Assembly: GCA_031406795.1 (NCBI GenBank)
Contig: JANOHV010000262.1
Span: forward strand, 723-64,722
Source: Candidatus Rokuibacteriota bacterium
Lineage (GTDB): Bacteria; JAUVQV01; DATDCY01
Length of the DNA: 64,000 nt
Reading direction: 5' to 3'
Shown piece by piece: positions 13,278 to 34,562 of the stretch. The position numbers and the translations under genes were made by a program. How positions within the stretch are numbered: the stretch's first letter is position 1; every line of letters begins with the position of its first letter. The notes under the pieces are model-generated. The model worked only from the letters and a program-made list of their open reading frames with translations, did not search any database and had not been told where the DNA came from.

Positions 13278-14333
13278 ATGACACCGGGCGAAGGGATCCC
13301 CGGAACGCGGCTGCTGCTCGCGTGCGGCGTTCTGCTCGTCGGATTCGCCGCGTCGTGCTCCCGGATCGACGCGGATGCCGTCTATGCGGTGCGGCTCGCC
13401 GCGCCGCCGACCGACGCCGCGTGGGACCTGGCGATGCCGCGCCGCGTGAAGGCCGGCGGCGGCAGCGTGCACGGGCGGACCCCGGTGCTCGCCGGCCTCG
13501 AGCTGGACACCGACGCGGTGCACGGCGCGTCGGCCTCCTGCCACCACGGCCCGCCGGTCACCCACCCGACGCCGGTGCAGCTCCGGGCGTACCACACGGC
13601 TGCCGATCTCTATCTCGACGTGCGCTGGGAGGATGCCACGGCAGACCTCGTTCCCCGCTCCTGGAAGCGCACCGACGGCGGCTGGGAGATCGCGCCCGAC
13701 GACGAAGACGGCGTCGCGATCCTCTGGAGCAGCGGCGCCGGACGCTTCGGCTGCCAGGCGGCCTGCCACCAGAGCGATTTCGCCGTCCGCGGCGGCTCGC
13801 TGGTGGACGTGCGCTCGATGTTCCTCGCGGAGGAGGGGGTCCGGGAGGAGGCCTGGGTCTGGAAGCCGTCTCTCGGCGGCCGCCAGCTGCTGATTGACCG
13901 CACGGGTTTCGTGACCCCCGGCGGGGCGCCCTACAGCGCGGTGAATTCGCGGTTGGCTCACGACGCCGCGCTCGGGCCCGAGGCCAGGCGCGCCGGCATG
14001 TTCGGGAAGCAGGACGCACCGGTGACCGACGGGGAGGGGCGACCCGTCACGGCTGCCACGCGCACTGCCCCCGCTAGCCGCTGGGCCCCTGCGGGCGAGG
14101 AAAACCGCGTCACCGCCCGTGCCGAACGGTGGCGCCGGGGCTGGCGTGTGGTGTTCACCCGGCCTCTCGCCCCCGGGGACGGACTCGCGGCCTTCCGGCC
14201 CGGGGAGCGCCACCGGTTCGGCGTCGCGATCTTCGACGGCACCTCGGTGAACCACCACGTCGTCCGCGACACCCAGATCTTCGAGATCGTGGCGCCGCCT
14301 GCTCCGGGCGTGGCGTCGGAGGAGGCGGAGTGA
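13278..14333 (+). CDS. putative heme-binding lipoprotein (CxxCH motif; ethylbenzene-dehydrogenase-gamma/DOMON-like domain suspected)
   Basis: Embedded in track ORF 12120-14333; the real start is ATG 13278 (MTPGEGIPGTRLLLACGVLLVGFAASC). Lipobox-like AASC, and a CQAACH heme c motif. The rest is a hydrophilic periplasmic domain. Confidence 0.55.
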   Translation: MTPGEGIPGTRLLLACGVLLVGFAASCSRIDADAVYAVRLAAPPTDAAWDLAMPRRVKAGGGSVHGRTPVLAGLELDTDAVHGASASCHHGPPVTHPTPVQLRAYHTAADLYLDVRWEDATADLVPRSWKRTDGGWEIAPDDEDGVAILWSSGAGRFGCQAACHQSDFAVRGGSLVDVRSMFLAEEGVREEAWVWKPSLGGRQLLIDRTGFVTPGGAPYSAVNSRLAHDAALGPEARRAGMFGKQDAPVTDGEGRPVTAATRTAPASRWAPAGEENRVTARAERWRRGWRVVFTRPLAPGDGLAAFRPGERHRFGVAIFDGTSVNHHVVRDTQIFEIVAPPAPGVASEEAE

Positions 14334-15829: not shown

Positions 15830-15882
15830 CGGCGTGTGGTGCGCGGTATATACTGAGACGATGACCCGGGGGAGATGAAGAG

Positions 15883-16644
15883 ATGAGCATGGAAGGGATA
15901 CCGAAGCTGTCCGCGTCGGCCGCGCTGCTGCTCGCGGTTCTCGCTGCCACGGCGGCCTGCGGCGGGTCGAAGCAGGAGTCCGGCCAGGCGATGGTGCGGG
16001 GGAAGGCGCTGACGCCGCTGGCCGAGGCGTACGTCTCGGTCTACCGCGAGGGCATGGACCTGAAGGGCCCCCCCTACACGACCTCCCAGCCCACCGGGCC
16101 GGAGGGCGACTTCTCGATCTCGCTGCCGCCGGGGAAGTATTTCTTCGTGCTGCGCCAGCGGGCGGCGGGCGACAGCGTGGGCCCGGTGCGGACGGGGGAC
16201 CTTCACAGCGAGGTCGTCGGGCCGGTCACCGTGCGCGGCGGCGAGGACATCACCCGCGATCTGATCGCCGTGCGCAAGATCGGCGAGACGAAGGATCTCC
16301 CCTCCACGACCCCGGCGCCGACGACCACCGGGATCAGCGGGGTGATCACCGACCCCGACGGCAAGCCGGTCAAGGACGCGCGGCTCCACGCCTACACCTA
16401 CCCGCAGATGTCCGAGCGGCCGAAGTACGTCTCGGAGGCGACCGGTGCGGACGGGCGGTACGTGCTCTTCTTCCCCGAAGGGGGCACCTACTACCTGGCC
16501 GCGCGCAGCCGCTTCGGGGGGCCCCCGAAGATCGGCGAGTTGTACGGCCGCTACGACGACGGCACGGTCGAGCCCTCGGCGATCCACGTCAAGGACAACG
16601 AGATCATCGAGCATGTCGACATCACGGTCCACAAGATCTGGTAG
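15883..16644 (+). CDS. lipoprotein with two carboxypeptidase-regulatory-like (CarbopepD_reg) repeats
   Basis: ORF track 253 aa. Signal plus lipobox AACGGS. Repeats end in GKYFFVLRQRAAGD and GTYYLAARSRFGGPP, with a TGADGRY motif. An AT-rich TATATACT box lies about 25 nt upstream. Confidence 0.8.
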   Translation: MSMEGIPKLSASAALLLAVLAATAACGGSKQESGQAMVRGKALTPLAEAYVSVYREGMDLKGPPYTTSQPTGPEGDFSISLPPGKYFFVLRQRAAGDSVGPVRTGDLHSEVVGPVTVRGGEDITRDLIAVRKIGETKDLPSTTPAPTTTGISGVITDPDGKPVKDARLHAYTYPQMSERPKYVSEATGADGRYVLFFPEGGTYYLAARSRFGGPPKIGELYGRYDDGTVEPSAIHVKDNEIIEHVDITVHKIW

Positions 16645-16702
16645 ACCGGAGCCCACCTCTGATTCCCCCTTGGGCAAAGGGGGAGCAAGGGGGGGTGAAA
16701 AA

Positions 16703-17611
16703 ATGCGCCTTCTGCTCGTCTCGGCGTGCTGTGCGGTGCTCCTGCTCGCCGCGGGCGGTTGCGGCCGCGGTCTGTCCGACCGACCGCTCGCCGAGGTGAT
16801 CGCCGCTGCCGAGAAGGGTGGGGGACCGGCAATCCGCGAACTCGTCAACCGCTTCGGCGACCCGGACCCCGCGCTCGCCCAGCAGGCCTGGGAGGCCGCG
16901 GTGCAGATCGGCGCGCCGGTCGTCCCCGAGTGCATCCGCGCGCTCGCAGCCAGGGACCGGGTCATCGGCGAGCACGCCGCCGGGGCCCTCGGCGCGCTGC
17001 AGGCGAAGGAGGCGGTCGACGGGCTCGTTGCGGCGCTCGCCCGCCCCGACTTCCGGCGCTACGCGGCGGCCTGGGCGCTCGGCGAAATCGCCGACCCCCG
17101 CGCGATCCCGCCGCTGGTGCGCGCACTCGGCGACAGCGATCCCGAGACGCGCAAGTTCGCCACGCGTTCGCTGACCAAGTTCGGTCCGCTCGCCTCGGAC
17201 GCCCTGCTCGCGGCGCTGGCCGACCCGTCGGCGCCGGTGCGCCGGTACGCGGTGCGGGCGCTCGGCCAGATGCAGGAGCGCCGGGCGGTCGAGCCGCTGC
17301 TCGCACTCGAGGGGAAGGTCGACCTGGACGTGCTCCTCTGGGCCTTCGGGCGGCTCGGCGACCTGCGCGGGCTGCCGCTGCTCGAGCGAGAGGCCGGCGC
17401 GACCGACTGGAAGGTGCGCCTCGCCGCGGTGCAGGGCCTCGGGGACCTGGCGGATCCCGCATCGGTCCCGGCGTTGAAGAAGGCGCTCGCCGACCCGGAG
17501 TGGATCGTGCGCGAGTGGGCGGCGCGCGGGCTCGAGAGCGTGACCGGGGAGCGTTTCACCTACCGGGACCAGCATGGGCAGGACGTCGCCCCCTACAGCC
17601 TCTACCGCTAG
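16703..17611 (+). CDS. HEAT-repeat (PBS-lyase-like) lipoprotein
   Basis: Track ORF 16445-17611. Real start is ATG 16703 after GGGAGCAAGGGGGGTGA. MRLLLVSACCAVLLLAAGGCG lipoprotein signal, then repeated A(L/V)xALGxxxDPxAVxPLxxAL units. Confidence 0.8.
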   Translation: MRLLLVSACCAVLLLAAGGCGRGLSDRPLAEVIAAAEKGGGPAIRELVNRFGDPDPALAQQAWEAAVQIGAPVVPECIRALAARDRVIGEHAAGALGALQAKEAVDGLVAALARPDFRRYAAAWALGEIADPRAIPPLVRALGDSDPETRKFATRSLTKFGPLASDALLAALADPSAPVRRYAVRALGQMQERRAVEPLLALEGKVDLDVLLWAFGRLGDLRGLPLLEREAGATDWKVRLAAVQGLGDLADPASVPALKKALADPEWIVREWAARGLESVTGERFTYRDQHGQDVAPYSLYR

Positions 17612-19193
17612 CGCCGCCGCGCAGCTGCCCACGGCCGCGGCGGGGCGGCTCGTGCGCCTCTGGCGCTCGCCGGCCTTCCCGGCGGTTCTCCAGGCGGCGG
17701 CGCTCGCCGTGCTGATCGCGCTGATCGCGGCCGGCTGGGGCCGCACCGGGTTGCCCGGCAGCGGCGCCGCGGTGCCCCTGCTCTACACGAACCTCGCCGC
17801 TCTCGGCTTCTGGACGCTCTGGCTGATGAGCCTGATCCTGCTGCTGCCCGGCGTCGGGCGTCTCTGGTGCACGGTCTGCCCCGTCGGTTGGTGCAACGAC
17901 CTCGCCTCGCGCGCCGGCGCGAAGGCCGACTACCCGCGGCGGCTGCAGCACCTGGGCCTGATGGCGCTGCTGCTGTTCGGCTTCAACGCCGCCGCGGAAC
18001 TCTGGGCGCTGAACCGCTCGCCGGATGCGACCGCGAAGCTGCTGGCTCTCGCGCTCGCCGCAGCGGTCGTCGCCGGGCTGGCATTTCGCGGGCGCGTCTT
18101 CTGCCGCTACTGGTGCCCGGTCGGCGGGATGATCGCGCTGACCTCGCGCCTCGCGCCGGTGGAGGTCGCCGTCCGCGACCTCGGCGTCTGCCGCCGTTGC
18201 GAGACCAAGGCCTGCTTCTTCGGCTCGACCCGCTGGCACCGGCTCTCCTGGGCGGCTTGGCACACCGTCTTCCCCCACAAACGGCCGGGGTGTCCCGCGT
18301 ACCTCTTCCCCCCCGAGGCGGCCCAGGGCCCGCACTGCCTGATGTGCACCGGCTGCATCAAGAACTGCCCGCACGACAACGTCCGCTGGGGTTTGCGGCC
18401 CTTCGCGTCGGGGCTCTGGCCCGCCGCGGCGCGCGACCGGGGCGAGGCGCTGCTGCTGGTCGTGATGACGGGGCTGGTCTTCCACCGGCTGGCGCGGTTC
18501 TGGGGCGGGCTGCGCGCCGTCGTGGAGTGGCCGACGGAACTGCTGGCGGCCGCCGTCCCGTCGCTGCCGACGCTCGCGCTCAAGGGAGCGAACCTGCTCT
18601 GCGGCTTCGTGCTCTGGCCGCTCGCGTTCTACCTCGTCCTCGGGGTCGTCGCCCGGGCGGCCGCGCAGATCAGCGTCGCGCCGTGGCCCGCGCCGGGGGA
18701 GGAGCCGGACGGGTTGCTCTACGATGTCGCCGAGGTCGACCGCGAGCAGCGCGGACGCGAGAGCGGCTGGGCGGCGCGGCGACAGAGCGTCTGGGGCTTC
18801 ATCGCGGTCTACGGGTATGCGTTCGTCCCGCTCGTCGCCGGGGCCTACGCGGCGTTCGCTCTCGTCAAACTCAACGAGAAGGCGGGCTACCTGCCGCTGG
18901 CGCTCGCCGATCCCGCCGGCGTGAAGACCTCGGTCGCGATCAACCAGCTGCGCCTGCTCTCCGGCCCGGAGAGCATCGTGGCGCTCGCGGTGGCGCGCTG
19001 GGGCGCGGTGGCGCTCGCCGCGGCCGGGCTCGCGATCGGGCTCTGGTCCGCCGGGCGCATCGGCGCGCGGGCCTACGGCGAGGCCACGCCGGCGGCGCGT
19101 CGCGGCGCCGCGGTCTTTCGTGTCGGGCTGCTCGCGCTTGGCACGCTGCTGCTGCTCTGCTTGCGGGCCTGGCTGTTCCGCGGCGGGCGCTGA
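17574..19193 (+). CDS. membrane polyferredoxin, NapH/NosR-C-terminal-like 4Fe-4S binding protein
   Basis: ORF track 539 aa. CTVCPVGWC and CRYWCPVGG motifs within TM helices, and CLMCTGCIKNCP ferredoxin motif. The start may instead be GTG 17652 (VRLWRSPAFP), because 17574 overlaps the upstream gene by 38 nt. Confidence 0.75.
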   Translation: MGRTSPPTASTASAAAQLPTAAAGRLVRLWRSPAFPAVLQAAALAVLIALIAAGWGRTGLPGSGAAVPLLYTNLAALGFWTLWLMSLILLLPGVGRLWCTVCPVGWCNDLASRAGAKADYPRRLQHLGLMALLLFGFNAAAELWALNRSPDATAKLLALALAAAVVAGLAFRGRVFCRYWCPVGGMIALTSRLAPVEVAVRDLGVCRRCETKACFFGSTRWHRLSWAAWHTVFPHKRPGCPAYLFPPEAAQGPHCLMCTGCIKNCPHDNVRWGLRPFASGLWPAAARDRGEALLLVVMTGLVFHRLARFWGGLRAVVEWPTELLAAAVPSLPTLALKGANLLCGFVLWPLAFYLVLGVVARAAAQISVAPWPAPGEEPDGLLYDVAEVDREQRGRESGWAARRQSVWGFIAVYGYAFVPLVAGAYAAFALVKLNEKAGYLPLALADPAGVKTSVAINQLRLLSGPESIVALAVARWGAVALAAAGLAIGLWSAGRIGARAYGEATPAARRGAAVFRVGLLALGTLLLLCLRAWLFRGGR

Positions 19194-19215
19194 CGATGGG
19201 GGAGGTGGGCCTGCC

Positions 19216-20349
19216 ATGAGGTGCGGCGTGCTGTCGGGGACGGCTGTCCGGGCGGCGCTCTTCTGCCTGCTCTATGCGGCCGCCGGCCCGCGTGAGGCGC
19301 TCGGACAGGCGGCGGCCGAGAAGGCGCCCGGGACCGCGCGTCTCTTCGGAAAGATCACCCGGGACACGCGCGGCGTGGCCGGTGCCCGCGTGCTGGCGTA
19401 CGCCTCGTTCGCCGATCTGCTCGCCTTTCGCAGCGCCGCCGTCTCGGCGCCTTCCGGCGCGGACGGCAGCTATCAGCTTTCGCTCCCGGCGGGAACCTAC
19501 CAGCTCGTGGCCCGCGCGCAGGACGGGCCGCCCGACGGGCCGGTGCCGGTCGGGGGACTCCACGCATTCCACGGCTCCAACCCGTTCACCCTGTCCCCGG
19601 ACAGTTCGACCGGAGTCAATTTTTCGCTGGCTCGCAAGACGGCCGAGCCGGTCGTCAGGACGGCGGCCGACCCGGGTTCGGGGACGCTCGGCGGCGTCGT
19701 GACCTCGGAGGGCGCCGGAGTCGCCGGGGTCCAGGTCAAGCTCTACCTCGACCCGGAGAGCGCGTTTCGGGGCATGGGCTACGCCGCGGCCCCGCCGACC
19801 GACGAGCGCGGCGTGTTCAGCTTCGATTACCTGCCGCAGAGCGCTTACTACGTGGTCGCCCGCAAGCGGGCGGGGGGAGGGCCGGGTCCGCTCGTCGAAG
19901 GCGATTTCTACGGCTACTACCCCGACAACCCGGTGCAGGTGCGGGGCGGGACCGCCGTCGAGATCGCGCTGGAGCTCGTGACCCGGGGCCGCGAGGTCGG
20001 GACCGCCGACGGACGGCCCCACCCGTCGGAGACCCGCATCGCGGGCCGCATCACGGATGCCGCGGGGGGGGTCGTTCGGGGCGTCTACGCCTTCGCGTAC
20101 GAGGAGAAGGTCATGGCCCACAAGAAACCGGCGTTCATCTCGCCGGAGGTCGACGACCAGGGCCGCTATGTCATCCACCTGTCGCGGCCGGGCACCTTCT
20201 ACGTCGGCGCGCGCTCGGCCTACGGCGACTCCCCCGGCCGGGGGGAGTGGTACGGGCGCTATGACGGGACGAGCGATCACGGGGTGACGGTCGCGGCGGG
20301 CGCGAGTGCGGAGGGGATCGACATCCGTGTCGAGCGCATTCTGCCGTGA
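19216..20349 (+). CDS. secreted protein with three carboxypeptidase-regulatory-like repeats
   Basis: Track ORF 19120-20349. ATG 19216 is preceded by GGAGGTGGG. Signal peptide, then repeats ending TYQLVARAQDG, AYYVVARKRAGGGP and TFYVGARSAYGD. Confidence 0.8.
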   Translation: MRCGVLSGTAVRAALFCLLYAAAGPREALGQAAAEKAPGTARLFGKITRDTRGVAGARVLAYASFADLLAFRSAAVSAPSGADGSYQLSLPAGTYQLVARAQDGPPDGPVPVGGLHAFHGSNPFTLSPDSSTGVNFSLARKTAEPVVRTAADPGSGTLGGVVTSEGAGVAGVQVKLYLDPESAFRGMGYAAAPPTDERGVFSFDYLPQSAYYVVARKRAGGGPGPLVEGDFYGYYPDNPVQVRGGTAVEIALELVTRGREVGTADGRPHPSETRIAGRITDAAGGVVRGVYAFAYEEKVMAHKKPAFISPEVDDQGRYVIHLSRPGTFYVGARSAYGDSPGRGEWYGRYDGTSDHGVTVAAGASAEGIDIRVERILP

Positions 20350-20356
20350 GCGGCTG

Positions 20357-21208
20357 ATGCGCGCCGCGCGCCGGGGCCTGTTGCCGGCCGTCCTCGCGGC
20401 CGGTCTGCTTCCCGCGGCGGCCGCCGCCGGGGAGCTCGTCGTCCGCGGCGGCGTCGCGGCGGACGAGACCTGGGACGGAGCGGTGACCGTCGTCGGCCAG
20501 GTCGTCGTCAGAAAAGGGGTGACCCTGACGATCCGGCCGGGGACGACGGTGCGCTTCGCGTGGAGCGACGAGGACGGCAACGGCATCGGCGACGGGGAAC
20601 TCGCCGTCGAGGGGCGCCTGGTCGCCCGCGGCACCCGGGAGCAGCCGATCACGTTCACGTCCGCGCGGGAGCAGCCGGCGCCCAAGGACTGGACCTACGT
20701 GATCATCAGCACGAGCCGCGAGAGCCTCATGGAACGCTGCATCTTCGAGTACGGCTTCACCGGGCTGCAGGTGCACCTGTCGTCGGCAACGGTGCGCAAT
20801 TGCCGCTTCCGACGCAACTTCGAGGCGCTGCGGTTTTCGACCTCCGAGATCCTCGTGGAACGCAACGAGATCGCGGAGAACACCTACGGCATACGCTACG
20901 AGTCCCGGGGCTCGAGCGGCAGTATCACCCGCAACACCATCTCCCAGAACGAGTACGGCTTCTTCCCGGTCGTCAAGAACGCGGCAGGGGTGCGGATTTT
21001 CGAGAACAACGTCGTCAACCGCGAGTACAATGTCAAGATGGGCGCCGAGCAGCGAGAGGACCTCGATTTCAGCGCAAACTGGTGGGGCACCACCGTCCCG
21101 GAGGAGATCGCGGCAGGATTCTTCGACGGGCGGCGGGAAGCGTCGATCGGCCGGGTGCTTTTCGAGCCGTTCCTGGACAAGGCGGTCGTGCCGTGCGGAC
21201 CCTTCTGA
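20357..21208 (+). CDS. right-handed parallel beta-helix repeat protein (NosD-like), secreted
   Basis: Track ORF 20306-21208; internal ATG 20357 (MRAARRGLLPAVLAAGLLPAAAAAG signal). Repeated ..N.I..N..G motifs (VRNCRFRRNFEALRF, VERNEIAENTYGIRY, ITRNTISQNEYGFF, FENNVVNREYNV). Its closest paralog in this window is 57163-58005. Confidence 0.8.
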   Translation: MRAARRGLLPAVLAAGLLPAAAAAGELVVRGGVAADETWDGAVTVVGQVVVRKGVTLTIRPGTTVRFAWSDEDGNGIGDGELAVEGRLVARGTREQPITFTSAREQPAPKDWTYVIISTSRESLMERCIFEYGFTGLQVHLSSATVRNCRFRRNFEALRFSTSEILVERNEIAENTYGIRYESRGSSGSITRNTISQNEYGFFPVVKNAAGVRIFENNVVNREYNVKMGAEQREDLDFSANWWGTTVPEEIAAGFFDGRREASIGRVLFEPFLDKAVVPCGPF

Positions 21209-22296
21209 TAGGTCTGGCAGTTTCCGTGGCGGTTGCGCTCTGGCAGCCGGCAGCTGCCGTGTCTGCGACCCACCCCGCCGGCCCGCTGCCGGCCCCGCTG
21301 CCCGGGGTCGTCGGACCCGGGGTCGAGGGACTGGCGGCGCTGCGCGGCGAGTTCGTCCCCGGCGTGGTCGTGCTCGCCTTCACCGAGCCGGGACCGGGGC
21401 CGAAGGCCGTCCCGCTCGCGGTGTCGGGAGAGACCGACGAGAGCGGCCGCTACCGGCTTGCCCTCAAGCCGGGCAGCTACTACCTCGTCGCGGTGAAGTC
21501 TGCCGGGGCGCCGTGGCCGTTTTCGGGAAAGAAGGGCGACCTGTTCTGCTACTACCTCGGCAATCCGATCGTCGTCGAGCCCGGGAAGATGACGCGGGTC
21601 GGCTTCAACATGGTCCGGGTCGGCGAGATGCAGGCGCCGATCGCGGGCGAGGGCGCCGGGATCGCCGGACAGGTGCTCTTCGAGGACAAGCCGCTCGGCC
21701 GCGCCTACGTCCACGTGTACAGCGACGCCGGCACGAATTTCCGCGGGATGGGCCTGGCGTCCGTCCCCACCGGCGAAGATGGGCGCTTCCGGATCAAGCT
21801 GCCGCCGGGCAGCTATTACGTGCTCGCGAGGAAGCGCCAGGGCGGCGGGATGTACGGCCCGCCGGGCAAGGACGACTACATCGGTTATCTGCCGGGAAAT
21901 CCCGTCACGGTGCGCCCGGGGGTGTTCTCGCCGCTGCGGTTGGAGGCCACGACCCGGGTCGATTTGCTCGAGGAGATCTGGTTCACCGAAGGGGCGAGCG
22001 CGGGGTGGTTCGAAGGGAGCGTGACCGATCCCGCGGGGAAGCCGGCCGCCGGTCTGTACGTGCTGTTCTACACCGACGCGGCGATGACCGGGACGCCGGC
22101 TTTCGTCGCCGGCCCGACCGACGCGAAGGGGCACTTCAAAGTCCGCGCCGCCGCGGGAAAGTTCCACCTGCTCGCCCGCTCGAACCTCGGGGGGCCGCTC
22201 GAGGCCGGGGAGTGGTTCGGCAAAGCCATCCTTGCCGGCGGCACCGCACCGGCGGAGGGGATCCGGATCGGCGTTTCGCGCTTCACCGGCAAGTGA
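21193..22296 (+). CDS. secreted protein with three carboxypeptidase-regulatory-like repeats
   Basis: In-frame part of track ORF 20560-22296. GTG 21193 (VRTLLIGLAVSVAVALW signal) overlaps the upstream gene by 16 nt. Repeats end in SYYLVAVKSAGAP, SYYVLARKRQGGG and KFHLLARSNLGGP. Confidence 0.75.
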   Translation: MRTLLIGLAVSVAVALWQPAAAVSATHPAGPLPAPLPGVVGPGVEGLAALRGEFVPGVVVLAFTEPGPGPKAVPLAVSGETDESGRYRLALKPGSYYLVAVKSAGAPWPFSGKKGDLFCYYLGNPIVVEPGKMTRVGFNMVRVGEMQAPIAGEGAGIAGQVLFEDKPLGRAYVHVYSDAGTNFRGMGLASVPTGEDGRFRIKLPPGSYYVLARKRQGGGMYGPPGKDDYIGYLPGNPVTVRPGVFSPLRLEATTRVDLLEEIWFTEGASAGWFEGSVTDPAGKPAAGLYVLFYTDAAMTGTPAFVAGPTDAKGHFKVRAAAGKFHLLARSNLGGPLEAGEWFGKAILAGGTAPAEGIRIGVSRFTGK

Positions 22297-23430: not shown

Positions 23431-25206
23431 TCAGGGCCCGCCCCGCTTCGCCAGACCGGCCGCGAGTTGTGCCTTGGCCACAGCGAGGTGCTCGCGGATC
23501 GACGGGTTCCCCGGTTCAAGCGCCGCCGCCTTCTCGAGGAGCGGCACGGCCTCCCAAGCTCGTCCGGTCCGGGCGAGCGCTACTCCCAGCGCATCCAGCG
23601 TGCGCGAATTCCCCGGCTCGAGCAGCAGCGACTCGCGGTAGGCGCCGATCGCCTCGGCAGGGCGGCCGAGCCGCTCGAGCGACCTGCCGCGAAGGCGGTA
23701 CGGCGCGGGGTCGTCCCCGTCGCGGGCGCTGGCGTCGGCATACCAGGAGAGGGCCTCCTCGTGTCGCCCGAGATCCGAGAGCGCGCGGCCGAGGTTGAGA
23801 TAGCCCTTTGCTGATTCGGGGGCCAGCCGGACCGTTTCTTCAAAGTGGGGCAGTGCGGCCCGGGCGTCCCCGCGCGCGAGAAGAGCGGTGCCGAGATTGT
23901 TGTGCGCGATCCGGTTGCCCGCAGTCACCTCGAGCGCCCGCGTGAACAGCGTCACGCCGTCGCGCCAGGTGGCAACTTGCCGCGCGGTGACGACACCGAG
24001 GCACCCGACGGCGACCAGGGACGCTGCGGCGAAGGCCGGCCCCAGTCGCCCCCGCCCTGCGATCTCTCCCAGCCCCCAGGCCGCGGCCACGAAAACGCCG
24101 ACGAGCGGGAGATAGGTGTAGCGGTCGGCCATGGCCTGCACGCCGACCTGTACGATACCGATCACCGGCACGAGTGACACGAGGTACCAGAGCAGCCCCA
24201 CGAGGATCCAGGGCCTTTGGCGGGACTGACGGATGCCGATTGCGGCCAGCGTGGACAACAGAGCCAACGAGACCACGAATACGAGCGGCGGGTGCCCGTC
24301 CCAGGGGTATGGGTAGAAGACCGCGAGATCTTCGGGCCAGAGCGCCTTGCGCAGATAACCGGCCCAGGCGACAACCGCGTTGACGGCGCGCGCCGGCAGG
24401 GGAATACCCGTGGCGGCCAGCATCGCGCCGGCGCCGGCCTGCACCACCCAGGTGACGATCGCTGAAGCAACGGTGAGCACCAGCAGGGGCGCTTTTTCGA
24501 GCCAGAGGCGCGCCGGCGGCAGAGAGCCGACGAGAGGGCCGGCTGCTCGCGCGGCGCCGGGCGTCGACGCCCACCGGCCGAGAGGCCACCAGTCGAGCAT
24601 CAGCAGCAACAGCGGGAGCGTCAGCGGCATCGGCTTGGCCAGCAGCGCCAGCGCAAAGAGCAGCGGCGTCGCGAGCTTCGGAGCAACGCTGTCCGGGCGG
24701 CGCACGCCCCGGACGTACGCGAGGGCCGCCCCGAGAGCGAAGAGCGTCGAGAGCACGTCCTTTCTCTCAGCCGCCCAGGCGACGGACTCGACGTGCAGCG
24801 GGTGGACGGCGAAGAGAGCGGCAACGAGGGCGCTCGGCCAGAGCGCGCCGGTGAGGCCGCGCAGCAGCGCGAACAGCAGCACGGCGTTGACGCTGTGGAG
24901 CCCGAGACTGACCGCGTGGTGCGCTCCCGGGTTCAGGCCGAAGAGTCGCACGTCGATCTGATGCGAAATCCACGTGAGCGGGTGCCAATTCCCGCCCCGG
25001 GTCGTCGTGAAGGCCCACTTCAGCCCGGCGAGGCTCGGGCCGTTGGCGAGGTTGGGATTCGCCGTCAGGTACAGATCGTCGTCGTAATTGACGAACCCGT
25101 TGCGCAGGACCCCGCCGAGGGCGGCCCAAGTCAGCAGGACGAGAACGAGGGAAACCGTCCAACCGGATCGCCCGGCAGTCGAACGAGGCCTCGGGTCGCT
25201 GGTCAT
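23431..25206 (-). CDS. TPR-containing GT-C membrane glycosyltransferase, DUF1736/PMT-like
   Basis: Track ORF 23431-25380; trimmed to ATG 25206 (MTSDPRPRSTAGRSGWTVSLVLVLL). Motifs WHPLTWISH, HPLHVESVAWAAERKDVL, LLLMLDWWPLGRW, ADRYTYLPLVG, and C-terminal TPRs (AHNNLGTALLARGDARAALPHFEETVRLAP..). Confidence 0.8.
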   Translation of the reverse strand: MTSDPRPRSTAGRSGWTVSLVLVLLTWAALGGVLRNGFVNYDDDLYLTANPNLANGPSLAGLKWAFTTTRGGNWHPLTWISHQIDVRLFGLNPGAHHAVSLGLHSVNAVLLFALLRGLTGALWPSALVAALFAVHPLHVESVAWAAERKDVLSTLFALGAALAYVRGVRRPDSVAPKLATPLLFALALLAKPMPLTLPLLLLMLDWWPLGRWASTPGAARAAGPLVGSLPPARLWLEKAPLLVLTVASAIVTWVVQAGAGAMLAATGIPLPARAVNAVVAWAGYLRKALWPEDLAVFYPYPWDGHPPLVFVVSLALLSTLAAIGIRQSRQRPWILVGLLWYLVSLVPVIGIVQVGVQAMADRYTYLPLVGVFVAAAWGLGEIAGRGRLGPAFAAASLVAVGCLGVVTARQVATWRDGVTLFTRALEVTAGNRIAHNNLGTALLARGDARAALPHFEETVRLAPESAKGYLNLGRALSDLGRHEEALSWYADASARDGDDPAPYRLRGRSLERLGRPAEAIGAYRESLLLEPGNSRTLDALGVALARTGRAWEAVPLLEKAAALEPGNPSIREHLAVAKAQLAAGLAKRGGP

Positions 25207-25292
25207 CCGGGGATTCTCGACGCGGGGGCCGGGGTTGTCAACGACACCCGTGGCCACTGAGGGGACCAGGCGGGGTGCGTCGGTGGAGGGGC

Positions 25293-25321
25293 TTGACAAT
25301 GATGCGGATTGGCGAAAAGAT
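25293..25321 (+). promoter_or_regulatory. candidate sigma70-like promoter (perfect TTGACA, 17-nt spacer, weak -10 AAAGAT) upstream of the tiny ORF
   Basis: TTGACA at 25293-25298 in a locally lower-GC intergenic island, followed 17 nt later by AAAGAT. Confidence 0.3.
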
Positions 25322-25366
25322 GGTGCCAGACGTGAAAAAAAACACCGTGGACAAGGAGGATGGCGC

Positions 25367-25429
25367 ATGCGCAAGGTCAAGTACGTGAAGCCCGGCGTGG
25401 TGGGCGGCTCCAGCGTTCACCCCTGCTGA
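25367..25429 (+). CDS. tiny 20-aa ORF MRKVKYVKPGVVGGSSVHPC with near-consensus Shine-Dalgarno
   Basis: AAGGAGG sits 7 nt upstream of the ATG, which is unusual strength for this genome. It lies about 100 nt upstream of a four-gene coupled operon. Below the ORF-track length cutoff. Confidence 0.35.
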   Translation: MRKVKYVKPGVVGGSSVHPC

Positions 25430-25532
25430 GCCTGGTTTCGGTCGCGTTTTCCGGGCCGGCCCCCCGCGGTGTGCCGGCTCGTCTCACCTCATGAATTCTT
25501 CCGAGGCCCTCTCGGATGCGGAGGGCGCCATC

Positions 25533-26135
25533 GTGTCTCGTCTTCTGCGCCTCGTCGCCTCGCTCTGTTTCGGCGTCGTCGCGGTCGCGCTGTGTGCCGG
25601 CGGCAGCCTGGCGCACGGCGGTCCGCCGCTGCGTATCGGGGTGACGCCGGACCCCGTCGTTTCAGCCGTGGCTAGGCTCGCCCTGGTGCACCTGCGCGAG
25701 GGAGTCGGGTTCGCGGTCGACTGGCGCGAGTTCCCCGACGAAGCCGCGCTGCGGGCAGCTTTTGCCGGCGGCAAGCTCGACATCGCCGTCGCGCTGGCGG
25801 AGCCCGCACCTCCTGCACAGCCGCAGCCGGCAGCCGATTGCCCGCGCGAGACGCTTGCCGCTCTGGGCGAAGGCCTGGGCCGGCGCTGGGGCGGCGAGGC
25901 GTTTCTTCTCGGGTTCTCCGTCGGCCCGTCGGTCTGCGCCCGGCCGGCGCTGATCGTCTCTCGCGCCGTGTTGGAGGACCTGCGCTTCGGCATCCTCCGG
26001 AAAGAGAGCGGGAGGATGGCGGCGCTCATCACGCGGGAGGACGTCGCCGCGGTCCGGGCCGCGGCCGGGAGCGGCGGCGAAAGAACGGCCACGGCTGCCG
26101 CGCGCGCGGCGCTGGCGACGAAGCCGAAACCGTGA
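25533..26135 (+). CDS. secreted substrate-binding-like protein (hypothetical)
   Basis: Track ORF 25491-26135. ATG 25491 is preceded by CACCTC (the anti-SD sequence), whereas in-frame GTG 25533 is preceded by GGAGGG 7 nt upstream. Signal peptide LLRLVASLCFGVVAVALCAGG. LRIGVTPDPV..GFAVDWREFPDEAALRAAFAGGKLDIAV resembles periplasmic binding proteins. Confidence 0.5.
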   Translation: MSRLLRLVASLCFGVVAVALCAGGSLAHGGPPLRIGVTPDPVVSAVARLALVHLREGVGFAVDWREFPDEAALRAAFAGGKLDIAVALAEPAPPAQPQPAADCPRETLAALGEGLGRRWGGEAFLLGFSVGPSVCARPALIVSRAVLEDLRFGILRKESGRMAALITREDVAAVRAAAGSGGERTATAAARAALATKPKP

Positions 26136-27088
26136 AGATCCTCTGTCCGGTCGACTCGGCCGCCGAGGCCGAGACGCTCGCGGGGCTCGGCGCCGACGAA
26201 CTTTACGGCGGCTACCTGCCGGCTCAGTGGACGGAGCGGTTCGCCCTTGCGGCACCGCCGAACCGGCGAACCTTCGCCGAGGCTCAGATCAGCGACGCCG
26301 GGGAGCTGCGTGCGGTCGTCGCGGCCGCGCACGCCGGCGGGGCGGAGTTCTTTCTGACGGTCAACAGCCCGTTCTACGCGAGCGGGCAATATCCGGCGCT
26401 GCTGGCGCTGGCCGAGGAGGCTCTGGCCGCCGGGACCGACGCCTTCATCGCCGCCGACCCCGGATTCATCCTCGCGGCCCGGGCTCGCTGGCCGGGGGTG
26501 CGCATTCACCTCTCGACGCTCGCCGACGCTGCCAACAGCGGCGCGGCGGCGTTCTGGGGCCGGCTCGGCGTGGAGCGCATCACCCTGCCGCGGCATCTGA
26601 CGCTGGCCGCGACCGCCGCGCTTCTTGCCGCGAGCCCCGGCCGGCGTTTCGACGCTTTTGTGCTGTATGGGCAGTGCCCGAACGACGAGGGGCAGTGCAC
26701 CTTCTCGCACGATCACCCTGGCCGCGTCTGGCCTTGCGTCCAGCCGTACACGGCGACCCCGCTGCCGGACACCCCCCGGGCGCGCCGGGCGGCGGCCGCG
26801 CACGCCGGCTGGGCGGGCCTCTCCCGCGCCGACGCCTGCGGGCTCTGCGCGCTCTGGGATCTGGAGCGCCTCGGCGTCGAGGCCGCGAAGATCGTCGGCC
26901 GTGGGACGCCGACCGGGCGCAAGGCCTGGGCGGTGACCACGGTCAAGGAGTTGCTCGGAATTATCGCCGCCGGCTGCGGCCGCGAGGAGTTCCGCGCCGA
27001 GGCGCGGCGGCGCTCGCACGGTCGTTTCGCGCACCGGTGCGATCCGCGGCTCTGCTACGTACCGGAACTGATCCCGGTCGAGGGGTGA
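26132..27088 (+). CDS. peptidase U32 family protein (UbiU/RlhA/PrtC-like)
   Basis: In-frame part of track ORF 25838-27088. GTG 26132 overlaps the upstream TGA. N-terminal KILCPVDSAAEAETLAGLGADELYGG matches the U32 N-terminal block. Cys cluster QCPNDEGQCTFS, plus CGLCALWD. Confidence 0.7.
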   Translation: MKILCPVDSAAEAETLAGLGADELYGGYLPAQWTERFALAAPPNRRTFAEAQISDAGELRAVVAAAHAGGAEFFLTVNSPFYASGQYPALLALAEEALAAGTDAFIAADPGFILAARARWPGVRIHLSTLADAANSGAAAFWGRLGVERITLPRHLTLAATAALLAASPGRRFDAFVLYGQCPNDEGQCTFSHDHPGRVWPCVQPYTATPLPDTPRARRAAAAHAGWAGLSRADACGLCALWDLERLGVEAAKIVGRGTPTGRKAWAVTTVKELLGIIAAGCGREEFRAEARRRSHGRFAHRCDPRLCYVPELIPVEG

Positions 27089-27876
27089 GCGTGGAGCGCG
27101 CCGTCTTCGTGGCCGATCTGGACAGGCTCCCCCCCGAGGGCGAGCCGTATGACCGTCTCTACCTCGGCAGCGAGTTCTGCGCCTGGCGCCTCCCGGAGGA
27201 ACGCGAGCTCCAGGAGGCGCGCGGTGTCGCCGCCCGCAGGGGGGTCGGCTTTTCGCTGGTGACACCCTTCCTCGACGAGCCCGGCCTGGCGCGCACGCTA
27301 GCACTGGTTCGCGCGCTCCCGGAGGACCCGGCGACCGAAGTCGTCGCCAACGACCTCGGCCTGATCGAGGTGCTGCGCGGTGCCGGGTGGGGAGGGACGG
27401 TGGTCGCCGGCCGCCTGCTCACGCGCCAGCGCCGGGGCCCGGGGTTCCAATCGTTCGGCGACGTCACCGCCGCGGCAGCAGCCGCGCTGCGCGGTTCCGC
27501 CCTCGACTCGCCGGCCTTCGTCGAGCTGCTCGGTTCGTACGGCGTCAAGCGCTTCGAGCTCGACGACCTCGTCCAGGGCGCTTCGATCCCCGTTCTGCCC
27601 GCGGGAGTCCACCTCTCGCTCTACCGGCCGTACCTGCTCGTCACCGCGACCCGCAACTGCCCGTGGATCTTCGACGGCCGCACCTGGGACCGCAGTCGCG
27701 GCTGCGCCCGCCCCTGCCGCGGTCAGGAGCTTCACCTGGTTCCGCAGCGACGGGACCCCGAAGCCCAGCACGGTCTCCACCTGGGCGGCTGCGCGCAGTT
27801 TCTCGAGCATCGGAGCGATGCCCCGCCCCCGGCGGGCGTCGACAGGATCGTCTGGCAACCGGAGATACCGGCGTGA
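27085..27876 (+). CDS. second U32-family-like protein (UbiV-like partner)
   Basis: In-frame part of track ORF 26227-27876. GTG 27085 overlaps the upstream TGA. DRLYLGSEFCAWRLP is U32-like. Cys cluster RNCPWIFDGRTWDRSRGCARPCRG. Confidence 0.6.
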   Translation: MSVERAVFVADLDRLPPEGEPYDRLYLGSEFCAWRLPEERELQEARGVAARRGVGFSLVTPFLDEPGLARTLALVRALPEDPATEVVANDLGLIEVLRGAGWGGTVVAGRLLTRQRRGPGFQSFGDVTAAAAAALRGSALDSPAFVELLGSYGVKRFELDDLVQGASIPVLPAGVHLSLYRPYLLVTATRNCPWIFDGRTWDRSRGCARPCRGQELHLVPQRRDPEAQHGLHLGGCAQFLEHRSDAPPPAGVDRIVWQPEIPA

Positions 27877-28811
27877 TGAATCTCGACTGGAGTCGTTTCT
27901 GGCTCGTCCTGCTTGATGAGGCCACCCGGATGTGGTGGGTCTTCGGCCTCGGCGTGCTCGTGGCCGCGCTGATCAAGACTTTCAAGTGGGACAAGAAGAT
28001 CCGCAAGCGGCTCAAGGGGAGCCGGCACGGGGCGATTGCGCTGGCGACCGGCGTCGGCCTCGTCTCGCCGCTCTGCTCCTGCGGCATCGTGCCGCTCGTG
28101 ATCTCGCTGATCTTCGGCGGCGTCCCGCTCGCGCCGGTCTTCGCGCTGCTGATCACCTCGCCGCTGATGAGCATCGACGCGTTCGTGATCACGCTCGGCG
28201 GCCTCGGCCCGACCCTGGCCTGGGGCAAGCTCGCGAGCGCCGTCTTCGCCGGCCTCGCGGGCGGCTACGCGGTGCTCGGGATGCAGAGGCTCGGGTGGAT
28301 CCGGGAGGAGGGCCTTCTCGGCCGCGAGCGCCCGAACATCCGCGAGAAGTGCCTCGACGACGCCGCGCCCGACGACCCCCGCCGCGGCCTCGAGGTCCCG
28401 GAGCGGCGGCTCTGGTACTTCGGCCTGATGGTCAAGGACATGACCTGGATCATCGGCCGCTTTCTCGTGCCCGCGCTCGTGCTGGAGGCAGCGATCGTCG
28501 CGTTCGTCCCGCTCGGCTGGATGAAGGCGCTGGCCGGTGCGCCCGAGCCGGTCGCGGTGATCGTCGGCGCGTTCGCCGGCATCCCGGTGCCGCTGCCCCA
28601 GATCGCCGCGGTGCCGCTGCTGCGCGGGCTGCGCGAGCTGGGCCTGGGGGACGCCGGGGCGATGGCGCTGCTGGTCTCCGGCCCGGTGACCAGCATCCCG
28701 GCGATCGCGCTGCTCGCGGCGGTCTTCCAGCGCCCGGTGCTCGCGCTGTACGTCACCACCGGACTGACCACCGCCCTTCTCGCAGGTTTCACGATCCTCG
28801 CGCTCGGTTAG
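27876..28811 (+). CDS. permease, ArsP/DUF318 (YraQ-like) family
   Basis: In-frame part of track ORF 27387-28811. ATG 27876 overlaps the upstream TGA (TGATG). About 8 TM helices, and an SPLCSCGIVP motif like the ArsP TPxCSC motif. Confidence 0.75.
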   Translation: MNLDWSRFWLVLLDEATRMWWVFGLGVLVAALIKTFKWDKKIRKRLKGSRHGAIALATGVGLVSPLCSCGIVPLVISLIFGGVPLAPVFALLITSPLMSIDAFVITLGGLGPTLAWGKLASAVFAGLAGGYAVLGMQRLGWIREEGLLGRERPNIREKCLDDAAPDDPRRGLEVPERRLWYFGLMVKDMTWIIGRFLVPALVLEAAIVAFVPLGWMKALAGAPEPVAVIVGAFAGIPVPLPQIAAVPLLRGLRELGLGDAGAMALLVSGPVTSIPAIALLAAVFQRPVLALYVTTGLTTALLAGFTILALG

Positions 28812-32923: not shown

Positions 32924-33499
32924 ATGACGACGACCCTCTCCCAGACCCTCGAGGCCCTGGCCGCGCTCGCGCGCAGCGCCGCGTGCACCGACCGCGCCGG
33001 GGCGGCCTGCGACCCCGATGCCGCGTTCGACCGCTGCGTCGACCTGCTCGCCGGCTGCGGCGGCGCCGGCGGCACCGTGCTCTGGATCGGCAACGGCGGC
33101 AGCGCCGCACTGGCGAGCCATTTCGCGGTGGACGTCTTCAACGCCGGGGTGCGCAGCACCGCCTTCAACGACGCGGCGCTGCTGACCTGCATGGGCAACG
33201 ACTGCGGGTACGAGCAGGTGTTCGCCCGGCCGGTCGCGCTGTTCGCCTCCCCCGGCGATGTGCTGATCGCGATCAGCAGCTCCGGGCGCTCGCCGAACAT
33301 CATCGCGGCGGTCGGCGCCGCCCGCGAGCGCGGCTGCGCGGTGATCACCCTCTCCGGCTTCTTGCCGGACAACCCGCTGCGCGGCCTGGGCGACTGGAAC
33401 TTCTACCTGCCGTCCGGGTCCTACGGTCCGGTCGAGATGGCCCACGCGTTCATCTGCCACGCGCTCGTGGACGCGCTGAAGGAGCGGCGCCGTGGCTGA
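32924..33499 (+). CDS. gmhA: D-sedoheptulose 7-phosphate isomerase (SIS domain)
   Basis: ORF track 191 aa. SIS-domain blocks WIGNGGSAALASHFAVD, ISSSGRSPNI and VITLSGF. Confidence 0.8.
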   Translation: MTTTLSQTLEALAALARSAACTDRAGAACDPDAAFDRCVDLLAGCGGAGGTVLWIGNGGSAALASHFAVDVFNAGVRSTAFNDAALLTCMGNDCGYEQVFARPVALFASPGDVLIAISSSGRSPNIIAAVGAARERGCAVITLSGFLPDNPLRGLGDWNFYLPSGSYGPVEMAHAFICHALVDALKERRRG

Positions 33500-34562
33500 C
33501 CGCTTCCGCATCGACGGCCACAAGCTGATGTACCACCTGCCGCGGGTCGCCGCGTGGGTTGAGGGCCGGCCGGTCTACCCGATCGCGATGGAGGTCGGCC
33601 CCTCCGGTTCCTGCAACCACCGCTGCCTCTTCTGCGCGGTCGACTACCTCGAGTACCAGCCGCGCTTCCTCGACGCGGCGGTCCTCGGGCAGCGGCTGAG
33701 CGAACTGGCCGGGCTCGGCCTCAAGAGCGTGATGTTCGCCGGCGAGGGCGAGCCGCTGCTGCACCGGGAGATCGCCGGGATCGTCGCGCACACGCGCGCC
33801 GCGGGCATCGAGGCCGCGCTCGTCTCCAACGCCGTGCTGCTGGGCGAGGAGCTCTGCCGCGCGCTGCTCCCGAACCTCACCTGGCTCAAGGTCAGCTGCA
33901 ACGCCGGCACGCCCGCGACGTACGCCGCGGTGCACCGCACGCGACCGGAGGACTTCGAGCGGGTCATGGCGAACCTCGCCGCCGCGGTCCGGATCCGGCG
34001 CGAGGCGGGGCTCGCCTGCACGATCGGGATCCAGCTGCTGCTGCTGCCCGAGAACGCGCACGAGGTGGCTGCGCTCGCCGCGCGCGCCCGGGAGATCGGG
34101 CTCGACTATCTGGTGATAAAGCCCTACTCGCACTTCGACCGCAGCCGCACCACCCGGTACCGCGACATCCGCTACGAGGAGTACCGCGGTCTGGCCGCCG
34201 CGGTGAGGGCCTGCGCGACGGCGTCGTTCGACGTGGTCTTCCGCGAGGAGACGATGCGCCTGCACGACGAGGGGGAGCGCACCTACGGCCGCTGCCTGGC
34301 GCTGCCGTTCTACTCCTACATCGACGCCGGCGGCACGGTCTGGGGGTGCAAGGAGTACCTCGGCGACGAGCGCTTCGCCTTCGGGAACATCAACGAGCAG
34401 AGTTTCCGCGAAATCTGGGACGGGCCGCGCCGCGCCGCGGTGCTGCGGTTCGTCGCCGAGGAGCTCGACGTGCGCGGCTGTCGCACCAACTGCCGCCTCG
34501 ACAAGATGAACCGCTGGCTCTGGGAGATCTCCCACCCGGCCGAGCACGCGAACTTTATTTAG
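33492..34562 (+). CDS. radical SAM protein
   Basis: ORF track 356 aa. CNHRCLFC (CxxxCxxC) and GEGEPLL motifs. The GTG start overlaps the gmhA 3' end by 8 nt. Confidence 0.8.
   Translation: MADRFRIDGHKLMYHLPRVAAWVEGRPVYPIAMEVGPSGSCNHRCLFCAVDYLEYQPRFLDAAVLGQRLSELAGLGLKSVMFAGEGEPLLHREIAGIVAHTRAAGIEAALVSNAVLLGEELCRALLPNLTWLKVSCNAGTPATYAAVHRTRPEDFERVMANLAAAVRIRREAGLACTIGIQLLLLPENAHEVAALAARAREIGLDYLVIKPYSHFDRSRTTRYRDIRYEEYRGLAAAVRACATASFDVVFREETMRLHDEGERTYGRCLALPFYSYIDAGGTVWGCKEYLGDERFAFGNINEQSFREIWDGPRRAAVLRFVAEELDVRGCRTNCRLDKMNRWLWEISHPAEHANFI

Follow-up and report, generated by a model that had tools for sequence, protein, structure and literature searches.

A conserved 20-residue peptide gene in Candidatus Rokuibacteriota, probable precursor for the GeoRSP radical SAM maturase

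The stretch of DNA considered here (the window) comprises 64,000 nucleotides (nt) from a Candidatus Rokuibacteriota bacterium (assembly GCA_031406795.1, contig JANOHV010000262.1, designated C116). On its forward strand, a 20-codon open reading frame (ORF) at 25367–25429 extends from an ATG at 25367 to a TGA at 25427–25429 and encodes the peptide MRKVKYVKPGVVGGSSVHPC; it is followed by an operon for an OpuAC-like envelope protein, a U32-family protein, a 262-residue protein, and an ArsP_1-type permease. An earlier note on this locus had proposed that the ORF could specify a leader peptide, a small regulatory protein, or a peptide substrate. We consider it likely that the product is the precursor peptide for the radical S-adenosylmethionine (SAM) maturase of GeoRSP, a catalogued system described in NCBIfam by a PqqD-family peptide chaperone (TIGR04302), a radical SAM/SPASM protein (TIGR04303), and a SPASM domain protein (TIGR04304). 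That the radical SAM enzyme modifies the peptide is a prediction drawn from gene content and a structural model.

The peptide gene and its flanking signals

The start codon is preceded, at a distance of 7 nt, by the Shine-Dalgarno (SD) sequence AAGGAGG (25353–25359, plus strand), and further upstream by TTGACA (25293–25298, plus strand), a −35-like box of what appears to be the peptide gene's own promoter, which is invariant in the three aligned genomes of the genus. The ORF, the spacing of the SD sequence, and this box were all read in the sequence where the earlier note had placed them. After a 17-nt spacer, the best candidate for a −10 element is only AAAGAT (25316–25321), which might act as such, and a consensus promoter scan of the region returned no plus-strand promoter for the ORF. 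The scan picked out a promoter-like site on the opposite strand (25241–25213; TTGACA, 17-nt spacer, GAGAAT), facing a divergent TPR/PMT-like gene; both divergent genes carry a TTGACA box, and the boxes lie within ~60 nt.

Behind the ORF lies a hairpin (25453–25480, plus strand) whose arms, GGGCCGGC (25453–25460) and GCCGGCTC (25473–25480), enclose a 12-nt loop. It resembles a terminator without the U run and is probably a partial terminator or a 3′-end stabiliser. In one relative of the same genus (G002), the stem of the hairpin is 10 bp long and contains a compensatory G-to-A change, and T6 comes directly after it; in another (G003), it is likewise kept in the alignment. The earlier note had described about 100 nt of GC-rich, hairpin-capable sequence between the ORF and the operon. 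Because the ATG of the next gene (25491) is aligned in three genomes, the spacer is in fact 61 nt long. The palindrome reported there, GGCCGGCC, is the 5′ arm of the real hairpin, whereas the CCGAG/CTCGG stem is coding sequence, since the next gene begins at 25491. The fold stability of 25325–25540 is no better than that of shuffled sequence (z = +0.94). A search of window positions 25000–25800 against Rfam gave five matches, all far below the gathering threshold (best E 0.16), and eight loci of the peptide family gave none at E up to 0.1. In one public run guessed to be RNA, the only contigs lying on this stretch are two short ones with the same sequence as 25340–25494, which are not usable as transcription evidence.

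The lineage is sparsely sampled: its genus has three further genomes, and the order and the class add one each. In G002, the peptide is identical and the ORF carries a single synonymous change. In G003, 9 of the 63 nt differ, seven of them at third codon positions, which amounts to six synonymous and two replacement codons; here the flanks diverge, and the DNA match spans nearly just the SD sequence and the ORF. The conservation check named in the earlier note, loss of the ORF from syntenic loci, thus turned out in its favor: both same-genus genomes that hold the locus retain it, and the order- and class-level relatives keep 19-residue versions of the peptide. No significant match was found in relative G001, a genome that is 78% complete. 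Moreover, the window genome itself contains a paralog on contig C43 (MKKVKYTKPMVVKGSSVHPC, 80% identical), with its own SD sequence and a clean intrinsic terminator that occupies the same place as the hairpin behind the window ORF. Taken together, these patterns of substitution and retention indicate that the ORF is a genuine conserved coding gene. Contigs of other organisms from two public DNA metagenome runs match only the ORF and SD sequence (for example, 25353–25429, with 4–7 differences) and are unlike the window beyond it, which fits a conservation island limited to the ORF.

A peptide family that tracks GeoRSP

Using a degenerate DNA pattern, one genome per species was scanned for further members. 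The pattern fixed K3, Y6, P9, position 11 (Val, Ile, or Met), T as the second base of codon 12, and a C-terminal VHPC followed by a stop codon, for which about one chance match is expected (our own estimate from the information content of the pattern). At least 134 distinct sites in at least 128 loci were recovered. Among the matches listed, a start codon (ATG 117, GTG 12, TTG 3) lies upstream by one to three codons at 132 of the 134 sites, and every one of these 132 also has an SD-like motif; the peptides are 20 (104 cases), 19 (26), or 21 (2) residues long. Position 13, left free by the pattern, is Gly at 128 of 132 of these sites, encoded by all four codons, and 68 of 129 are followed by a hairpin and a T run. 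The reading of the TGA stop as selenocysteine is excluded, as all three stop codons are in use among these matches (TGA 80, TAA 38, TAG 16). The peptide combines a basic N-terminal part, K-x-K-Y-x-K-P-x-V-V-G, with an invariant C-terminal V-H-P-C.

Hosts among the matches listed include Geobacter and other Desulfuromonadia and Nitrospirota/Thermodesulfovibrionia, with single occurrences in Polyangia, Deferrisomatales, and other metagenome-assembled genomes (MAGs); cultured members of the Geobacter group carry three to six copies per genome. The family is wider than the scan pattern, given that a genome of ~40% GC unrelated to the window lineage (G012) encodes the IHPC variants MEKKIKYFSPKIVASSYIHPC (L205 4030–4092) and MKIKYMKPAIIKTSYIHPC (L206 3994–4056). 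A subfamily with a second Cys (..GSVCVHPC, ..GFVCVHPC) was observed in Nitrospirae MAGs (L023, L028, L065, L074, L094, L098, L102–L105, and L128), where as many as four copies stand in an array within ~4 kb and alternate with transthyretin-like genes. With E limits of 1 or 10, none of seven peptides tried matched an NCBIfam family; Pfam has no family that matches the window peptide, and an exact look-up of ten family peptides in a collection of 15 billion proteins returned none. A literature search, with supplements outside its range, found no paper that names the GeoRSP system or its peptide; in PMC9204691, the passage concerned treats SbtM, not GeoRSP. The family is thus widespread, yet never annotated in the libraries or papers searched.

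The link to GeoRSP is apparent from gene order. In Geobacter sp. AOG1, a copy of the peptide gene heads an operon that ends in all three GeoRSP genes, with scores of 164.8 bits (TIGR04302), 614.9 bits (TIGR04303), and 339.4 bits (TIGR04304), against NCBIfam cut-offs of 100, 400, and 300 bits, respectively. Between its ResB-like gene and the GeoRSP genes, this operon has genes for a transporter of the NicO-like type, for a TPR protein, and for another NosD-like protein. More compact cassettes were also found: in 13 of the 14 such loci fetched, an 18–20-residue copy, usually MKKYMKPRVVGSSNVHPC, lies between the radical SAM/SPASM and SPASM-only genes, the sole exception being G149, in which these two genes abut. 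Directly beyond the AOG1 cassette lie genes (L172 4133–6894) for a PhnD-like binding protein and a YedE-family putative selenium transporter (TIGR04112, 410 bits), a hint of sulfur or selenium chemistry.

Co-occurrence was assessed by searching the same genomes with a profile of the peptide (E of 1e-3 or lower) and with TIGR04303 (E of 1e-80 or lower). In the class of G. hydrogenophilus (G041; 151 genomes), 58 genomes have both, one (G149) has only the radical SAM gene, none has only the peptide, and 92 have neither. The corresponding figures for the phylum of a Nitrospirota genome (G044; 121 genomes) are 12 with both, none with the radical SAM gene only, one (G214) with the peptide only, and 108 with neither. 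A third sample of 41 genomes, namely the window genome (G000) and its 40 'relatives', mostly from unrelated phyla, gave six with both (G000, G002–G005, and the unrelated G012, whose TIGR04303 member scores 419.8 bits), one (G001) with the radical SAM gene only, none with the peptide only, and 34 with neither. Overall, 76 of 313 genomes have both, two the radical SAM gene only, one the peptide only, and 234 neither, and the pattern is seen anew in each of two phyla, the window's own lineage, and G012. According to their coordinates, 24 of the 59 genomes of the G041 class that are positive for the radical SAM gene have a peptide gene no more than 250 nt downstream of it, and 15 further ones have a same-strand peptide gene 5.7–11 kb upstream. 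The presence of the peptide family follows that of the GeoRSP maturase nearly perfectly.

The window genome holds a corresponding cassette on contig C84, where four genes follow one another: a NosD-like lipoprotein (47–979), a PqqD homolog (966–1289; TIGR04302 85.7 bits, cut-off 100, E 8.7e-24), a radical SAM/SPASM protein (1286–2299; TIGR04303 455.3 bits, cut-off 400), and a SPASM-domain protein (2296–3231; TIGR04304 55.7 bits, on the SPASM part only; Pfam SPASM E 6.2e-5). The TIGR04302 and TIGR04303 scores apply to 987–1277 and 1310–2281, respectively. The PqqD homolog gene overlaps the start of the radical SAM gene, which the SPASM-domain gene abuts; the product of this last gene holds the syntenic position but has diverged. 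The TIGR04303 cut-off is exceeded in none of 14 control genomes, and all five relatives G001–G005 have members (438–456 bits) with an adjoining PqqD homolog. The maturase is therefore present in the window genome, unlinked from both peptide copies. A continuation of C116 into C84, considered because a NosD-like gene stands at the end of the window and another at the start of C84, cannot be shown, as C116 ends 2.1 kb past the window. The window has a radical SAM ORF of its own (33492–34562, plus strand), with a CNHRCLFC motif and a sugar-nucleotide/cytidylyltransferase-like neighborhood; its match to TIGR04303 is partial (36 bits), and it is unrelated to GeoRSP.

A complex of the PqqD homolog and peptide of the window genome was modelled in three runs, with both partners given as alignments. 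The complex score is 0.79 (runs 0.79, 0.81, and 0.79), compared with 0.02 for the best control; 116 of 157 solved complexes attain that mark, as do 2 of 215 mismatched pairs. Contact agreement between runs is at least 88%, and the predicted local distance difference test (pLDDT) value of the partner is at least 65. The modelled interface places peptide residues 2–14 against PqqD residues 26–39, 50–59, 78–82, and 87–97, and leaves residues 15–20 (SSVHPC) outside. The model suggests that the PqqD protein binds residues 2–14 as a leader.

Gene neighborhoods of the family and the window

Upstream and downstream neighbors of the sites were grouped by clustering. Among the matches listed, 74 sites have an ORF of at least 100 codons ending within 300 nt upstream, 69 of them on the same strand; these comprise 25 genes for giant multihaem cytochromes (up to 37 CxxCH motifs), 19 for secreted transthyretin-like proteins of ~270 residues, eight for fn3/Ig giants, three for Big_1 proteins, and 14 others. 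Some of the fn3/Ig giants (cluster 2; for example, L038, L043, L055, and L057) resemble the peptide in having a near-terminal Cys, found among their final one to three residues (..VCP, ..ICRP, ..TCQ, ..TCTP). Downstream, an ORF of at least 100 codons lies within 1 kb at 86 sites in the same set, in the same orientation at 62 and convergent at 24. A recurrent operon after the peptide gene encodes a NosD-like beta-helix protein (~850 residues), a transthyretin-like protein, an OpuAC-like lipoprotein of ~190 residues, and a ResB-like membrane protein.

The operon behind the window ORF begins with the gene for the 214-residue OpuAC-like envelope protein (25491–26135, plus strand). The earlier note had called its product a binding protein, a label that goes no further than a weak match to Pfam OpuAC (E 0.019). 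The ~190-residue Geobacter lipoprotein matches OpuAC at E 1.9e-7; pairwise BLASTP between the window protein and the Geobacter lipoproteins is weak (E 0.077 and 0.012), and profile–profile comparison gives a probability of 83.7% (E 8e-6, 172 columns). By the profile comparison, the only informative one, the window protein is a remote homolog of the lipoproteins in the Geobacter and Nitrospirota peptide operons.

Next in the operon come what had been described as a pair of U32 genes, only the first of which is borne out. The first (26132–27088, plus strand) encodes a UbiU/TrhP-like U32-family protein (PF01136 96.9 bits, cut-off 22.4) that scores 70 bits on the NCBIfam model for UbiU and 69 bits on that for TrhP, both far below cut-off. 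The product of the second (27085–27876, plus strand; 262 residues) has no Pfam or NCBIfam match and no BLASTP similarity to the first U32 protein. Its low-confidence structural model (pLDDT 58.9) looks TIM-barrel-like, the best template modelling (TM) score among weak hits being 0.39 for the U32 peptidase Mk0906 (E 0.015), and searches with BLASTP, PDB sequences, and Foldseek yielded no firm assignment. The last gene (27873–28811, plus strand) encodes the ArsP_1-type permease anticipated by the earlier note (PF03773 118.5 bits, cut-off 32.3), which distantly resembles the Cu/Zn efflux protein SO_0444 and SaoE (NCBIfam 80 and 61 bits, below cut-offs).

On the other side of the ORF, the divergent gene (23431–25206, minus strand) encodes a TPR/PMT-like membrane protein, paralogs of which recur in the peptide loci of relatives. 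Envelope-gene arrays were located by tblastn with proteins of relatives, their Pfam names being taken from homologs in G005 and Geobacter. The upstream array, all on the plus strand, holds genes for an EB_dh-like protein (13296–14294), three transthyretin-like proteins (15964–16641, 19390–20340, and 21415–22269), a HEAT protein (16703–17440), a Fer4_5 membrane protein (17649–19178), and a NosD-like protein (20441–21199); the stretch 13296–22269 contains homologs of genes that lie beside the peptide gene in G005 and Geobacter. A second plus-strand array found by tblastn comprises two transthyretin-like genes (56450–57151 and 60902–61615), a NosD-like gene (57178–57975), and an NosD-like gene of the 850-residue type that starts near 62336 and continues past the window.

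The paralog on C43 lies between the genes for a 790-residue Big_1/invasin-like protein (ending ...FKFF) and a 351-residue ResB-like membrane protein (L019 439–4109), and this Big_1/peptide/ResB-like trio is also present in G002 and G005. In G005, the relative at class level, these and other genes stand on one strand within ~25 kb, in a stretch that ends in the module of OpuAC-like, U32, 262-residue-type, and ArsP genes; this module lies ~13 kb downstream of the only peptide gene of that genome and has none directly ahead of it. Since the module is near the peptide gene even at class level, the link between the peptide and the U32/permease genes is older than the genus, and it is within the genus that a further peptide copy, the second, came to lie immediately before the module. 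The U32/permease operon is thus a lineage-specific accessory module conserved at class level. A peptide gene directly upstream of the module with the U32 gene, whose recurrence elsewhere the earlier note had suggested checking, was found in three genomes of the genus; outside the class, U32 genes are not among the frequent neighbors of the family.

Predicted function, alternatives, and related systems

In the proposed pathway, residues ~2–14 of the peptide would serve as the recognition sequence held by the PqqD protein, and the invariant C-terminal Val-His-Pro-Cys, presumed to be the core, would be presented to the radical SAM enzyme and modified there. By analogy with the action of MftC on the C-terminus of MftA, the most likely outcome would be an oxidative change or a cross-link at or near the C-terminal Cys; the best matches of the radical SAM enzyme outside GeoRSP include the models for haem b synthase AhbD, MftC, and NirJ2. 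The window copy would be expressed from its own promoter at the head of the OpuAC-like/U32/262-residue/ArsP operon, with the other copy following the Big_1 gene and preceding the ResB-like gene, and the hairpin probably makes the short peptide transcript more abundant than the read-through one, in the way known for pqqA. For the downstream proteins, an accessory role in the handling, tailoring, or export of the product is probable, and tailoring by the U32 protein after GeoRSP is compatible with such a scheme.

Could the ORF be a chance frame in GC-rich intergenic DNA? It has only 20 codons, and GC-rich genomes are full of open frames; the bias toward synonymous substitutions, the paralog in the same genome, and the homologs at no fewer than 134 sites reaching into other phyla, with their start codons, SD motifs, and three stop codons, make this negligibly probable, and it is already refuted by conservation as far as computation can do so. 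The leader peptide option raised in the earlier note takes the ORF to act in cis, such that translating it, or the arrest of a ribosome at its conserved C-terminus and stop codon, would control the hairpin and thereby read-through into the operon. The arrangement in the window would suit this, as the ORF stands 61 nt before the operon with the conserved hairpin in between, which leaves the operon no space for a promoter of its own; conservation of the peptide extends to its final residue, as it does in arrest peptides acting at termination (TnaC and SpeFL), and 62 of 86 members among the matches listed have a same-strand gene within 1 kb downstream. In the other 24, however, the downstream gene is convergent, the paralog in the same genome and many other members end in a full terminator, and compact cassettes place the peptide gene between two enzyme genes. 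The N-terminal half, the part modelled on PqqD, equals the C-terminal half in conservation; regulatory codons do not occur in a run, the regional fold signal is lacking, and in G005 the four-gene module is retained although a peptide gene does not immediately precede it. We therefore regard control in cis as very improbable.

A role as an unmodified microprotein deserves more weight, but is still unlikely. Its His-Pro-Cys end could bind a thiol, metal, or haem in partnership with envelope proteins or giant cytochromes, and its co-occurrence with GeoRSP would then come only from sharing one larger gene array. Consistent with such a role, 55 of the 74 sites among the matches listed lie directly behind multihaem, fn3/Ig, Big_1, or transthyretin-like genes, and the NosD-like, NicO-like, ResB-like, and ArsP-type neighbors belong to families associated with the handling of metals or haem. 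A signal sequence is absent from the peptide, whereas its neighbors are secreted; moreover, its N-terminal motif is modelled on PqqD by a large margin over controls, and it is with the maturase itself that the peptide co-occurs, its gene lying inside the radical SAM cassette in nearly all compact loci. The remaining candidate, in which the peptide is a substrate of the adjacent U32 pair (for oxygen-independent hydroxylation or proteolysis) and GeoRSP is unrelated, draws on the direct upstream position in three genomes of the genus and on the retention of the module in G005, on the same strand as its distant peptide gene. No U32 gene is found among the frequent neighbors of other sites among the matches listed, a search with the protein of 27085–27876 was empty in one Geobacter and one Nitrospirota genome that have the peptide, and the second 'U32' is not confirmed as a U32 protein; this candidate is accordingly most improbable. 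The substrate option of the earlier note thus survives with GeoRSP, rather than with the adjacent U32 pair, as the primary enzyme: the peptide family co-occurs with the GeoRSP cassette (76 genomes with both, 3 with one, and 234 with neither), and in other genomes its copies stand within or at the front of that cassette.

Several points weigh against assigning the peptide to GeoRSP. Related genomes are not independent observations in the co-occurrence counts, and exceptions exist: G149 and the 78% complete G001 have the radical SAM gene with no peptide found, and G214 has the peptide with no radical SAM gene found. In the window genome, two of the three cassette proteins fall below their NCBIfam cut-offs (85.7 versus 100 bits for the PqqD homolog and 55.7 versus 300 for the SPASM-only protein), and because the peptide genes are on C116 and C43 and the cassette is on C84, peptide and maturase are not directly adjacent there. 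The calibration of the complex score lacks partners of fewer than 30 residues, and our own alignments were used; the score may reflect likeness to solved complexes of leaders with RiPP recognition elements (RREs) rather than binding by this pair. Finally, family members lie more often behind giant cytochromes or large secreted proteins (25 + 8 + 3 of 74 among the matches listed) than beside the maturase, a placement that could mean an additional or a different role.

The assignment to GeoRSP, if correct, bears on a system that is catalogued but unstudied in Geobacter and many sediment bacteria, and for which the libraries searched record no substrate. A conserved peptide of 18–21 residues that tracks GeoRSP gives its enzyme a testable substrate; standard gene calling misses its gene, although the genomes of model metal reducers carry several copies each. 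The copies behind giant multihaem cytochromes, together with the nearby families for haem and metal handling, point to a possible unknown cofactor or partner in extracellular electron transfer. To this picture, the window adds a sparsely sampled lineage in which the precursor can be unlinked from its maturase, and the OpuAC-like protein, the U32 protein, and the ArsP-type permease as candidate accessory parts.

A bolder proposal, which we offer tentatively and think rather less likely than its negation, is that the His-Pro-Cys peptides give rise to a cofactor or prosthetic group that is new and derived from a peptide, made by GeoRSP in the manner of pyrroloquinoline quinone (PQQ) and mycofactocin and used outside the cytoplasm by giant multihaem cytochromes and other large surface proteins, with the U32-type enzyme and the ArsP-type permease tailoring and exporting it in the present lineage. 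The U32 family includes oxygen-independent hydroxylases. Such a cofactor would explain why extra, strongly expressed copies stand directly behind cytochrome and surface-protein genes, and would account for the NosD-like, ResB-like, OpuAC-like, and metal-transporter-like genes that accompany the system; metal-reducing and sediment bacteria would be the hosts in which it is used.

Among known systems, arrest peptides of the TnaC type share with the locus a short ORF conserved to its stop, followed by a hairpin and an operon, but the 24 of 86 family members among the matches listed that have no same-strand downstream gene, and those inside enzyme cassettes, depart from that design. Lasso peptide leaders carry a YxxPxL motif that is bound by an RRE or PqqD-like protein. 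The family's Y6-x-x-P9-x-V11 has the same spacing, the model puts these residues on PqqD strand 50–59, and the PqqD homolog weakly matches the PqqD models of lasso systems; however, only ~6–8 residues follow the motif, too few for a lasso, and no lasso cyclase or protease genes are present. In mycofactocin biosynthesis, MftA ends in a C-terminal Val-Tyr, and MftC acts on the C-terminal residues of the peptide. The present family resembles MftA/MftB/MftC in that its invariant residues are the last of the peptide, and its maturase scores 172.5 bits on the MftC model (cut-off 265), but it ends in Cys instead of Tyr, and its neighbors are envelope proteins and cytochromes, not dehydrogenases.

PqqA, the precursor of PQQ, has ~20–24 residues and is encoded by a small gene that stands ahead of larger ones with a hairpin behind it, in several copies in some genomes. 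The likeness to PqqA/PqqD/PqqE extends to a short precursor with K-P in its N-terminal part, a PqqD chaperone, and a radical SAM/SPASM enzyme; TIGR04303 members score 119.5 bits on the PqqE model and the PqqD homolog 33 bits on PQQ_PqqD, both far below cut-off. The Glu/Tyr core signature of PqqA is absent, the core V-H-P-C lies at the very C-terminus, no PqqB or PqqC genes are nearby, and none of the seven peptides tried in NCBIfam matched the curated PqqA or MftA models. A system with a short precursor, a PqqD chaperone, and a radical SAM/SPASM enzyme is thus of a known and catalogued kind, and what is new to the libraries and papers searched is the peptide. The closest counterpart remains GeoRSP itself, given that the window genome has a TIGR04303 member above cut-off, preceded by a PqqD homolog and followed by a SPASM protein as in the cassette. 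It differs in that the peptide is unlinked from the cassette here, and in that the catalogued system consists of three proteins, to which the peptide gene would add a fourth, as yet unannotated part.

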